Below, one piece after another: positions 44,815-47,800 of a stretch of 64,000 nucleotides of DNA. Both the position numbers and the translations under genes were made by a program. The notes under the pieces were generated by a model. The model was not told the DNA's origin. It did not search any database and saw nothing but the letters and a program-made list of their open reading frames with translations. Every line of letters starts with the position of its first letter. The stretch's first letter is position 1. Origin of the DNA: Minisyncoccota bacterium (GTDB lineage Bacteria > Patescibacteriota > Minisyncoccia > Phycocordibacterales > UBA2100); NCBI GenBank assembly GCA_965267345.1, contig OZ253947.1, positions 489,964 through 553,963 on the forward strand. The letters run 5' to 3'.

Positions 44815-47800
44815 ATTGCTTGGTTAAAGCAGTTAGAGAACTCCTTCCAGGAGGATTTCCTTGGCGAATTAGTACACCTCGGCTAAGTGCGTCACCGCAC
44901 GTACACCTGGTGCCTATCAACCTAGTCATCTCCTAGGGGCCTCAAATGATTCCTTATCTTGAAGTTGGCTTCCCGCTTAGATGCCTTCAGCGGTTATCCA
45001 TTCCCGACATAGCTACCCTGCGTTGCCACTGGCGTGACAGCAGGTAGACCAGAGGTCAGTTCATCCCGGTCCTCTCGTACTAGGGACAAATCTTCTCAAG
45101 AATCGACGCCTGCAGCGGATTACGACCAACCTGTCTCACGACGGTCTGAACCCAGCTCGCGTACCTTTTTAATTGGCGAACAGCCAAACCCTTGGGACCT
45201 TCTCCAGCCCCAGGATAAGGTGAGCCGACATCGAGGTGCCGAACACCGCCGGCGATATGGACTCTTAGGCGGTACCAGCCTGTTATCCCCAGGGTAACTT
45301 TTATCCGTTGAGCTCCAGCTGCGTCTAAAGCAAACTGTCGGATCACTATGTTCCGCTTTCGCGCCTGCTCGACACGTACGTCTTGCAGTCAAGCTCTCTT
45401 CTGCCATTACACTATCGGCACGGTTTCCATCCGCGCCTAGAGAACCTTTAAACTCCTCCGTTACTTTTTAGGAGGATAGCGCCCCACTAAAACTACCTGC
45501 CAGATACTGTCTCTGAGAGGTTTTTCCACTCAGGTTAGAAGACGCACATGTAAAGGATGGTATTTCACTGGCGACTCCACAACTCCCAAAAGAATTGCTT
45601 CAACGTCTCCCATCTATGCTACGCATTACACACACGCCCCCAATATCAAGCTGTAGTAAAGCTCCTGGGGTCTTTCCGTCCTGCTGCAGGTAAGCGGCAT
45701 CTTTACCGCTATTGCATTTTCACCGGGCTGTTCCTCGAGACAGTGCTCCAGTCGTTACGCCATTCGTGCACGTCTGAAATTACCAGACAAGGAATTACGC
45801 TACCTTAGGACCGTTATAGTTACGGCCGACATTCACCGGGGCTTACATAGCCCAGCACACAAAGTAAACTTCGTGCACCATCCATGCTTAACCTTCCGGC
45901 ATTGGTCAGGCGTCACCCCCTATACATCCTCTTGCGAGTTCGCAGGGAGCTGTGTTTTTGGTAAACAGTCGCCAGAGCTCTTTCGCTGCGGCCTACTCTT
46001 CCGAAGAAAAGCAGGCAGACCTTATCCCTAAGTTACGGTCGCTTTTTTGCCGAGTTCCTTGAGGAACTTTCACCCGTTCGCCTTAGTCTTCTCGACTCTA
46101 CCACCTGTGTTGGTTTGCGGTACGGTCTCCACACTGTTGAAGCTAAGAGGCTTTTCTTGGAGGGCTCTTCATACAAATCCGTGCACGCGAACGTACACGT
46201 TTCGTCGGTTCTCGAGAGTGTATGATACGCGGATTTGCCTACGTATCCTCTCTTAGAACAAACAACACCAATCCAATAAGATGCTTGTACCTGTGTCCCC
46301 CGTCACCCCATCGCACAGTGCGCAGGTTACGGAATATTAACCGTATGTCCATCGCCTCCCCCGTTCGGGATCGGCTTAGGCCCGACTAACCCTGAGCTGA
46401 TCTTCATGGCTCAGGAAACCTCGGTATTTCGGCGTGTGGGAATCTCACCCACAATGCGGTTACTCGTGCCAACATTCTCACTTCCAAATGCTCCACCGTG
46501 GGTCACCCCTTCGGCTTCAGCGCGAATGGAACGCTCTCCTACCGCTCATGGACTTCATTGAGGAGGCAAGTTTCCTTGCCTGATGTTGCGTGTGGCTCCC
46601 ATGACAGGATTTGAACCTGTGACCTCTGGAGTAACGTCCAGCGCTCTATCCAGACTGAGCTACATGGGTCTATCACACAAAAGAACATCCTCAATGAAAT
46701 CCACAAGCCCGCAGTTTCGGTACGATACTTAACCCCGATCATCTTCGGCGCAAGGTCTCTGAGTGAGTGAGCTGTTACGCTATCTTTAAAGGGTGGCTGC
46801 TTCTAAGCCAACCTCCTCACTGTCTGTGAAACCTCACCTCCTCGCTTGTACTGAGTATCGATTTAGGGACCTTAACTGGCGATCTGGGCTGTTTCCCTTT
46901 TGAGCACAGGAGCTTCGCCCCCTGACTCTAACTGCCACGTTTTTAACTACTGGTATTCGGAGTTTGATAGGAGTGACGAGCTTTCGCCCTATTCACACCT
47001 TCCAGTGCTCTACCCCCAGCAGGAACACGTGACGCCAACCCTAAAGCTGTTTCGGAGAGAACCAGCTATTACCAAGTTCGATTAGCTTTTCACTCCTTAC
47101 CACAAGTCATCCGAGCGCGTTGTACGACGCAACGGTTCGGGCCTCCAGAGGTCTTTCGACCTCCTTCACCCTGCTCATGGTAAGCTCACCTGATTTCGGG
47201 TCTCATGCATACGACTATGGACGCGCTATTCACACTCGCTTTCGCTCTGACTCCACCCGACAAGGGCTTAGCCAGCCATATGCATGAACTCGTTGGCTCA
47301 TTCTTCAATAGGCACGCCGTCGAGGTGCAAGACCTCTTCGACTCCTTGTAGACACATGGTTTCAGTTCTATTTCACTCCCCTCATCGGGGTTCTTTTCAC
47401 CTTTCCCTCACGGTACTTGTTCACTATCGATCTGAATGAATATTTAGCCTTACCGGTCAGTTCCGGCAGATTCACTCGAGCTATTCGTGTCTCGAGCTAC
47501 TCAAGAGTAACAACCAGAGAGGTTGTAGTGTTTTCAAGTACGGGGCTATTACCCTCTGGGGCTCTGCTTCCCAGCAGATTCCTCTAACACACAACTTTGT
47601 AACTCTCCCTGCGTAAACGCAGCGTCGTTATCTTACAACCCCCCTCTGTAAACAGAGAGGTTTGGGCTTCTTCCGTTTCGCTCGCCGCTACTCAGGAAAT
47701 ACCATATTGGTTTCTGTTCCTCTAGGTACTAAGATGTTTCAATTCCCTAGGTACACCCCTTACATCAAGTGCAAGGTCATCGAGGGTTACTCGATGGGGT

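Follow-up and report, generated by a model that had tools for sequence, protein, structure and literature searches.

The 64,000-nt stretch of DNA analysed here, referred to below as the window, lies on contig OZ253947.1 of a Minisyncoccota bacterium, and carries on its minus strand a 23S rRNA gene whose helix 45 is interrupted by a cassette of 123 nt (46565-46687). The central part of the cassette is a tRNA-like cloverleaf with an encoded CCA. We judged the chance to be somewhat better than even that the cassette is an internal transcribed spacer in helix 45, in which the tRNA-like part would probably be a signal for RNase P and the flanking stem a substrate for RNase III, and that the 23S rRNA would consist of two pieces. 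The fold of the element, its site, the family to which it belongs, its conservation pattern, its presence and absence among relatives, and the architecture that it shares with a spacer cassette were each established directly.

The first-pass annotation of the window, which was made from the sequence alone, had proposed an intervening sequence carrying a tRNA mimic or a tRNA-derived element inside the 23S gene. This proposal was supported by the alignment to the large subunit (LSU) rRNA model, by the tRNA model, and by comparison with relatives. The parts it had listed (D arm, T arm, acceptor stem of seven positions, A1·A72 mismatch, 6-nt anticodon loop, and encoded CCA) and their coordinates agreed exactly with the sequence. 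The element lies on the minus strand, the same strand as the host 23S gene. Its 5ʹ half reads ACCCAUG UA GCUC AGUCUGGAUA GAGC G CUGGA CGUUAC UCCAG, and its 3ʹ half reads AGGUC ACAGG UUCAAAU CCUGU CAUGGGA G CCA, in which the G before CCA is the discriminator. ARAGORN reported 46593-46669(-) as 'tRNA-???' with a 2-nt anticodon. The tRNA model of Rfam (RF00005) matched the element over model positions 1-71 with 53.8 bits, against a gathering score of 29, and with E = 8.9e-09 when the whole window was searched. R1, a covariance model of the family described below, scored it at 73.6 bits.

The cloverleaf departs from a decoding tRNA at several places. Six of the seven positions of the acceptor stem are paired, A1·A72 being the mismatch; mismatches at 1:72 are also a feature of initiator tRNAs, and they were found in 5 of the 25 helix-45 elements. 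The layout needed for decoding, a 7-nt loop with U33, an anticodon of 3 nt and a purine at position 37, is missing from the 6-nt loop CGUUAC of the window, and assuming a one-base homopolymer error in this loop (UU to UUU) still does not yield U33. The third pair of the acceptor stem is C3-G70, not the G3:U70 of the tmRNA-type alanine pair. CCA is encoded in the tRNA-like element and not in the two ordinary tRNA genes of the window.

The position of the insertion was defined with the bacterial LSU model. The 23S gene had been described as about 200 nt longer than a typical one; it is indeed longer, and the excess is smaller, about 154 nt (3079 nt against a consensus of 2925 nt). The stretch with the tRNA-like element was not aligned as ordinary 23S helices. 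Instead, the model treated about 145 nt of the window 23S as inserted sequence in the loop of helix 45, falling between its positions 1218 and 1219. ATGATCGGG and GGTAGG are 199 nt apart in the window and 62 nt apart in locus L042, which has an ordinary helix 45. The 123-nt cassette sits on the tip of a helix 45 that is itself already lengthened, and the parts are transcribed in the order GGGCUUGU-GGAUUUCAUUGAGGA, UGUUCUUU, UGUGUGAUAG, the tRNA-like element, CACGCAACAUCA, the GGCAAGGAAACUUGCC hairpin, and UCCUCAAUGAAGUCC-AUGAGC.

The extended helix, P1, is formed by 46690-46710 with 46544-46564, and comprises 21 consecutive base pairs including 3 G·U pairs. This reaches the length of about two helical turns that suits a stem to RNase III. 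P1 covaries among loci, for example UUGAGG/CCUCAA against UUCAGG/CCUGAA, and relatives that have no tRNA-like element share the extension. In the leader, UGUGUG pairs with the trailer, and AUAG is left unpaired next to the predicted RNase P site. The whole helix 45 region of 201 nt folds as a three-way junction with z = -5.5 against shuffled sequences.

No match to a group I or group II intron was found with Rfam in the window, nor in 46500-46760 at E <= 1, and the 123-nt insert is too short for an open reading frame (ORF) such as that of a homing endonuclease. The same search detected group I introns in the 23S genes of L003, L008, and L011, indicating that the method works. Group I introns and LAGLIDADG ORFs occur elsewhere in 23S genes of the loci compared (L003 4982-5265, L008 5728-5977, L011 1064-1317, L026 155-805, and L034 9609-10067). 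They are independent of the helix 45 cassette and have already been described for Patescibacteria.

We searched for further copies with a pattern in which a T loop is followed by the conserved 23S stretch just after helix 45, GGTTCRANTCC-N45-75-GGTAGGRGAGCGTTC. The pattern matched 15 stretches in 185,579 species genomes and 10 in metagenome contigs, and 14 genomic and 9 metagenomic loci proved to carry a tRNA-like element inside the 23S gene at the same site. Two matches were discarded. L012, on a Thermoplasmata contig, was a chance match in coding-looking DNA with no rRNA. L023, on a human-gut contig, was a transfer-messenger RNA (tmRNA) gene fused to a 23S fragment; in its 2123 nt (coverage 497), a tmRNA with the tag ADNNYALAA runs straight into a 23S fragment starting just before helix 45, and this is probably a chimeric assembly of the genes for two abundant RNAs. 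Most of the loci were labelled Kaiserbacteria, Paceibacterota, Parcubacteria, or Patescibacteria, and the RodA of the window points to the same group. L011 (79-kb contig of a metagenome-assembled genome, or MAG, labelled 'Bacillota') and L013 (1.8-kb contig of a 'Rhodospirillales' MAG) have the helix 45 extension of Patescibacteria type together with the cassette, and their taxonomic labels are probably errors of binning or classification. The carriers include a complete genome, CP174360 of Minusculum obligatum (locus L001).

The covariance model R1 was built from 20 of the elements and recovered 25 distinct helix-45 elements, in about 22 other loci of Patescibacteria. The inserts range from 123 to about 580 nt and hold one or two tRNA-like elements, many members having an extra structured insert of 100-450 nt or tRNA-like elements in tandem. 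The other elements are 42-69% identical to that of the window. No donor of the window's element could be identified among the relatives, the best identity to any other element being 69%. Judging from these comparisons, the element is not a one-off of the window genome and belongs to a family distributed through Patescibacteria of the Paceibacteria type. More degenerate tandem copies were seen in L026 (1309-1429), L034 (739-885), and L017, where the copy lies in the helix 45 insert some 100 nt upstream of the main element; they consist of an acceptor/T-arm minihelix only, or have very long inserted anticodon arms, which suggests serial duplication and decay within the cassettes.

Covariation was measured in a set of 36 aligned elements, consisting of helix-45 copies, spacer copies, and a few ordinary tRNAs. 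Paired cells amounted to 94.2%, compared with 64.4% in shuffles and 34-50% in controls with slid partners. Changes on both sides were found in 18 of 21 pairs, and all four stems of the cloverleaf covaried.

The remaining counts of elements refer to the 25 helix-45 elements. Their T loop is 7 nt long in every case and reads UUCRANU in 24. The D stem GCUC/GAGC is kept in 23 to 25 of them, depending on the pair, and GG is retained in nearly all D loops. In the acceptor and T stems, pairing amounts to 80-100%, and compensatory changes are numerous. The anticodon loop, by contrast, can be as short as 4 nt or as long as 46 nt; only nine elements have one of 7 nt, the U33-NNN-purine layout is seen in about seven, and several anticodon arms have GNRA tetraloop caps or long inserts. 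The parts that are kept are those read by RNase P, RNase Z, and the CCA enzyme, whereas the part that only a decoder needs varies. This is the pattern expected of a substrate of these enzymes and not of a decoder, and would indicate selection on the 'top half' only.

ARAGORN assigned anticodons for Ala, Trp, Tyr, Asp, Leu, Glu, Lys, and Ile across the family, and several '???'. Because the anticodon loops vary so widely in length and are rarely canonical, these assignments are mostly meaningless. The elements called 'Tyr' and 'Leu' have class I shape, which true bacterial tRNA-Tyr and tRNA-Leu do not have. G3:U70 was found in about seven elements by reading of the alignments, those of L002, L011, and L024 among them, with 8 G·U counted at that pair, and these carriers hint that part of the family descended from tRNA-Ala.

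Conservation extends to the rest of the cassette. The helix-45 extension UUCAUWGAGGA / UCCUCWAUGAA is common to nearly all members and covaries. GTTCTTT, the core of the junction motif, is present in 15 of 21 distinct helix 45 inserts, and in 13 of those it lies 23-30 nt before the D arm. Pairing of 8-13 bp between leader and trailer occurs in nearly all helix-45 elements, often taking in the CCA. Neither the free-standing tRNA-Leu of the window nor the tRNA-Ile of L029 shows such pairing; the window's spacer tRNA-Ile does. A hairpin of other sequence occupies the position of P3 in other cassettes.

The module also occurs in the spacer between 23S and 5S rRNA genes. In the window, this spacer holds a decayed second tRNA-like element, which R1 matched over its full length with 23 bits (E = 2e-07 in the 261 nt searched). 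It is enclosed by an outer stem of about 17 bp (about 44640-44780), followed by a hairpin, and the fold gave z = -3.4. Intact counterparts were found in the spacers of L040 (5037-5112), L030 (6848-6921), L026, and L034-L037. The cassette of L040 has an outer stem of 20 bp, ACAGUUCUUUUUCAUAUUUGU, a cloverleaf ending in ACCA, a hairpin, and the return strand (z = -10.4), and the GUUCUUU motif precedes it at the same spacing. Because the same plan recurs in the 23S-5S spacers of relatives and of the window, the helix 45 insert can be regarded, from its architecture, as a copy of the standard rRNA-spacer module of this lineage. In the 23S-5S spacer the module must be cut out for the 3ʹ end of 23S and the 5ʹ end of 5S to mature, and we therefore read the cassette as an internal transcribed spacer that would also be cut at helix 45. 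We considered a rule of one tRNA-like element per operon, with the helix 45 copy occurring where the spacer copy had decayed. The window fits this rule, but both copies are present in L003 and L008 and both are missing from L028, L029, and L031; the rule was abandoned.

We also compared the window with relatives that have no module in helix 45. These were long contigs with the gene order of the window, seven loci in all, with RodA 69-72% identical. The conserved order is L10-L12, MscS-like, 23S, 5S, hypothetical, RodA, sugar transferase, and SecDF. None of the seven syntenic loci has a tRNA-like element in helix 45, in contrast to the about 22 more distant loci, although several of the seven have the cassette in their 23S-5S spacer. 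Five distinct sequences among them show only a perfect hairpin that exceeds the usual helix 45 by 26-31 nt, and in one helix 45 is ordinary. Contigs with closer RodA homologues (P0002, P0005, P0009, and P0017; 72-80% identical) end at the rRNA operon, and helix 45 lies outside them. Because relatives have a lengthened helix 45 without the tRNA-like element, the comparison indicates that what differs is the presence or absence of the tRNA module, at the tip of a helix that was lengthened already. Such sporadic occurrence among relatives is typical of intervening sequences.

From the sequence comparison and the architecture shared with the spacer cassette, we propose the following course of excision, cleavage, and rRNA fragmentation, with the enzymes that would carry them out. 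The core would be a tRNA-derived element in which the acceptor stem stacked on the T arm, the elbow of D loop and T loop, and the discriminator with CCA have been preserved and a usable anticodon loop has been lost. The cloverleaf would fold after transcription, and RNase P would cut at the 5ʹ end of the tRNA-like element, between G46670 and A46669; in the window, the neighbouring AUAG and GCCA are predicted to stay single-stranded. RNase III would cut the 21-bp P1, which has a suitable length as a substrate, and exonucleases would trim the ends. The mature 23S rRNA would then be made up of one piece of about 1.2 kb and another of about 1.7 kb, held together non-covalently. Patescibacteria retain rnc, the gene for RNase III (PMC12641178).

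Several observations weigh against this scheme. The cloverleaf had been expected to fold better than shuffled controls. The minimum free energy (MFE) structure of the isolated 77-mer is the cloverleaf, as expected, whereas its energy of -23.7 kcal/mol is only marginally better than that of shuffled sequences (z = -1.07; 32 of 200 shuffles were equally good). The folding energy of tRNAs is usually not significantly better than that of shuffles. With the energy near that of shuffles, structural support was therefore taken from the covariance model and the comparison with relatives. The pairing of leader and trailer, often with CCA, in most cassettes should slow RNase P. In some bacteria, RNase Z is blocked by an encoded CCA, and the 3ʹ cut is therefore probably independent of RNase Z; it may depend on RNase III or exonucleases. 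P1, which is present without the tRNA-like element in relatives, might alone be sufficient for RNase III, and the tRNA-like element would then be dispensable for cutting. Finally, the element of L002 (Ala-UGC, G3:U70, 74 bits) resembles a fully functional tRNA, and since some members look like working tRNAs, the family may lack a single role.

Alternatively, the cassette could be a classical intervening sequence processed by RNase III, in which the tRNA-like element is a neutral or selfish passenger, either a slowly decaying copy of a spacer tRNA or part of a mobile cassette moving from one exposed loop of an RNA gene to another. We give this explanation a minor but appreciable chance. It would account for the P1 extension without a tRNA-like element in relatives, the sporadic distribution, the occurrence of one or two tandem copies and extra inserts of 100-450 nt, the decayed anticodon arms, and the decay of the window's own spacer copy. 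A similar cassette nested in the anticodon loop of tRNA-Ile and flanked by an 8-nt direct repeat also speaks for it, and Tsurumaki et al. assumed short 23S insertions of Patescibacteria at 23IS2 and 23IS4, both known sites of intervening sequences, to be intervening sequences cut by RNase III (PMC11270868). In a passenger, however, the whole cloverleaf should decay, whereas the acceptor, D, and T arms and their loop nucleotides have been kept with compensatory changes at 42-69% identity, only the anticodon loop is free to vary, and the distance from GUUCUUU to the tRNA-like element is fixed. If, instead, the insert stayed in the ribosome as an expansion segment, it would form a tRNA-shaped domain on the solvent side of the 50S subunit at helix 45, possibly docking a tRNA-binding factor. 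Helix 45 is surface-exposed and tolerant of insertions, which is compatible with this idea, and the leader-trailer helix that closes the acceptor end in nearly all members would hold such a domain on the rRNA. The ribosomes of Patescibacteria are otherwise unusual as well (PMC12641178). We nevertheless consider a retained segment improbable: the same cassette in the 23S-5S spacer could not be retained in either mature RNA, inserts of such variable size (123 to about 580 nt) and number of tRNA-like elements (one or two) fit poorly with a defined structural role, and close relatives do without the cassette.

A working tRNA, or a chargeable tRNA-like RNA comparable to the tRNA domain of tmRNA, might be released from the rRNA transcript, helix 45 being a site of high expression for a tRNA. 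The members with a canonical look, L002 (Ala-UGC with G3:U70, 74 bits), L003 and L021 (Trp-CCA), and L014 (Lys-CUU), would agree with this, as would G3:U70 in about 7 of 25 elements. This pair is the identity element for alanine and works without an anticodon. The window's element, moreover, encodes CCA while the two ordinary tRNA genes of the window do not. The same element has a 6-nt loop without U33-NNN-R37, the A1·A72 mismatch, and C3-G70 in place of G3:U70; across the family, 16 of 25 loops differ from 7 nt in length, about 18 of 25 depart from the canonical layout, and the 'Tyr' and 'Leu' elements are class I in contrast to their true bacterial counterparts. These features make a working tRNA very unlikely for the window's element. 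An assembly artefact, in which a tRNA gene was misjoined into the 23S gene during metagenome assembly, is hardly credible. The source is evidently derived from a metagenome, the RodA of the window being 100% identical to a protein on a 644-kb contig, and rRNA regions often break assemblies, but more than 20 independent assemblies, the complete genome CP174360 among them, have the same cassette at this site, the flanks continue helix 45 perfectly, and leader and trailer are complementary; a chimera would not give such compensatory architecture. At the speculative end, the cassette may be a mobile or copy-and-paste module of Paceibacteria that colonises exposed loops of highly transcribed structural RNA genes (helix 45 at its tip, the spacer between 23S and 5S, and perhaps the tRNA-Ile at 34617-34883 in its anticodon loop), producing a 'tRNA punctuation' of rRNA like that of mitochondria. 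The excised tRNA-like RNA, equimolar with ribosomes and bearing G3:U70 in some lineages, would then act in its own right as a small RNA that can be charged. We regard this proposal as unlikely.

Table 1. Positions of the helix 45 cassette, its host gene, and the 23S-5S spacer features in the window
Feature	Position	Strand	Evidence
Host 23S rRNA gene, 3079 nt	44849..47927	-	Rfam RF02541 LSU_rRNA_bacteria, 2484 bits, model positions 1-2925
5ʹ strand of helix 45 with extension (P1), RNA GGGCUUGU + GGAUUUCAUUGAGGA	46688..46710	-	Sequence, fold
Unpaired motif UGUUCUUU (GUUCUUU core), junction J1/2	46680..46687	-	Conserved in other loci
5ʹ leader UGUGUGAUAG	46670..46679	-	Fold, duplex calculation
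tRNA-like cloverleaf	46593..46669	-	ARAGORN, Rfam, fold, covariation across relatives
3ʹ trailer CACGCAACAUCA, complementary to leader	46581..46592	-	Fold, duplex calculation
G+C-rich hairpin P3 (GGCAAG GAAA CUUGCC), abutting 3ʹ strand of P1	46565..46580	-	Fold
3ʹ strand of extended helix 45 (UCCUCAAUGAAGUCC + AUGAGC)	46544..46564	-	Sequence, LSU alignment, fold
Decayed second tRNA-like element in 23S-5S spacer, ending ...CUCGGCG A CCA	44688..44759	-	R1 match, fold
5S rRNA, downstream of spacer cassette	44510..44618	-	Rfam RF00001, 75.5 bits

On the minus strand of the window, the rRNA genes follow in transcription order as 23S (47927 to 44849), 5S (44618 to 44510), 16S (37099 to 35642), and tRNA-Ile (34779 to 34705). 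The rRNA genes are unlinked and in an unusual order, with 23S-5S in front and 16S-tRNA-Ile following on the same strand after 7.4 kb of protein genes. RodA, the sugar transferase, and SecDF are located between 5S and 16S, and this arrangement is kept in L028-L031. From the 3ʹ end of 16S to the outer tRNA-Ile described below, the spacer is unusually long (34884-35641 on the minus strand, about 760 nt, or about 860 nt to the inner tRNA-Ile). No Rfam match was found in 34884-35641, and the sole ORF there (34916-35440) is on the opposite strand.

The motif UGUUCUUU was also found at 34795-34802, before the tRNA-Ile of the window, with the same spacing as in helix 45, and a leader-trailer helix is present there too. 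The annotated tRNA-Ile(GAU) at 34705-34779 sits inside a second, split tRNA-Ile at 34617-34883 on the minus strand. The 5ʹ part of this outer tRNA-Ile (about 34846-34883) has a degenerate D arm and ends at position 38 of the anticodon loop. It is followed by an insert of about 186 nt with UGUUCUUU, a 12-bp inverted repeat GCGUAUGUGUUC/GAACACAUACGC, and the complete inner tRNA-Ile. The 3ʹ part (34617-34659) is identical, and the 8-nt direct repeat CCTGATAA is found at both junctions. R1 also matched the 3ʹ half of the outer tRNA-Ile (34614-34667, 21.8 bits). The arrangement has the appearance of a nested duplication or of a tRNA gene into which a tRNA cassette was inserted.

GUUCUUU resembles GCUCUUU, the core of boxA, and we considered it as a boxA antiterminator. 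A different box was found in the 23S leaders, UGAUCUUUGACAAUUUAAUAGC in the window (48055-48080) and NNCUUUGACAANGAAUA in others, among the window and 9 of 10 other loci (from L001-L015); in most loci it is preceded by a G+C-rich hairpin and then a U run. The 16S leader of the window has UUUUUUGACAACCGAAUAC (37310-37330, minus strand). The consensus of the leader box in the window and 9 of 10 further loci is roughly NNCUUUGACAA, followed by GAAUA. This matches the E. coli boxA, UGCUCUUUAACAA, better than GUUCUUU does, and it is probably the real antitermination box of the lineage. Because the leaders carry another box closer to the E. coli boxA, GUUCUUU is at most boxA-like. A search of the literature for the GUUCUUU sequence gave only matches to primers.

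If the proposed processing is true, a large branch of Patescibacteria would build its large ribosomal subunit with a two-piece 23S rRNA, the break being set by tRNA-processing enzymes. Such a mechanism is known from mitochondria and archaea, and we have not found it described inside bacterial rRNA. It would also account for part of the unclassified short rRNA insertions in Patescibacteria. The element is real, widespread, and apparently overlooked. Annotators should expect spurious tRNA calls with odd anticodons inside the 23S genes of these organisms, and the cassette family offers a natural example of tRNA features kept under selection for processing only.

No description of a tRNA-like element inside bacterial 23S rRNA was found in the searchable literature on intervening sequences (IVSs), on insertions in the candidate phyla radiation (CPR), and on Patescibacteria. 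A systematic survey of rRNA insertions in Patescibacteria does not mention tRNA (PMC11270868), and the paper on the carrier Minusculum obligatum, an organism grown in an algal enrichment culture, makes no mention of the element (PMC12239599). The first-pass annotation could not place a tRNA-like insertion in a described class. For the tRNA-like content and the surrounding cassette this view stands, as both appear to be undescribed; the insertion site, the tip of helix 45, is classical and already known. The components and the predicted mechanism have precedents.

The closest of these in position are the helix-45 IVSs of Salmonella, Yersinia, Campylobacter, Leptospira, and Coxiella, which are excised by RNase III with no religation and occupy the same site as the window cassette. 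They give fragments of about 1.2 kb and 1.7 kb (PMC11270868; PMC4990558), and the same would be expected for the 23S rRNA with the cassette. The two are also alike in the long flanking stem (21 bp here) and in presence or absence among close relatives. To our knowledge, classical IVSs are plain hairpins or carriers of an ORF (S23p in Coxiella), and none has a tRNA-like domain. Unlike in these, the stem of the cassette is capped by a three-way junction with the GUUCUUU motif, the cloverleaf, and a hairpin, and the module doubles as a 23S-5S spacer.

The t-elements of plant mitochondria and the mascRNA of MALAT1 are tRNA-like processing elements. A tRNA-like element upstream of 5S rRNA in Haloferax volcanii is cut by tRNase Z (PMC3296008). 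In these elements and in that of the window, a tRNA fold lies in a longer transcript without a decoding role, and would be recognised by the enzymes that process tRNA ends, setting the ends of neighbouring RNAs. The conservation pattern of the 25 helix-45 elements, with the top half kept and the anticodon arm free to vary, fits such a role. They differ in that the known elements are found in archaea and eukaryotes, between genes or at 3ʹ ends, whereas the window element lies inside a helix of bacterial rRNA. Cleavage has been demonstrated for the Haloferax, t-element, and mascRNA types, and is predicted for the window element.

In the mitochondria of Tetrahymena pyriformis, LSU alpha and beta are separated by a tRNA gene (Heinonen et al. 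1987, as cited in PMC2996981). As in the cassette, a tRNA sequence there parts two segments of LSU rRNA that work unjoined. In the mitochondrial case the tRNA is functional and the pieces are sometimes rearranged, whereas in the window the order is kept, the break falls in helix 45 of a bacterial lineage, and the tRNA-like element has no part in decoding. Spacer tRNAs, such as the tRNA-Ile and tRNA-Ala between 16S and 23S, are co-transcribed with rRNA within the processing stems, and RNase P helps to separate the rRNA precursors. The window's 16S-linked tRNA-Ile shares the UGUUCUUU motif and the leader-trailer pairing with the helix 45 element. Ordinary spacer tRNAs, however, are functional and lie between rRNA genes, whereas the window element lies within the 23S gene and has a defective anticodon loop.

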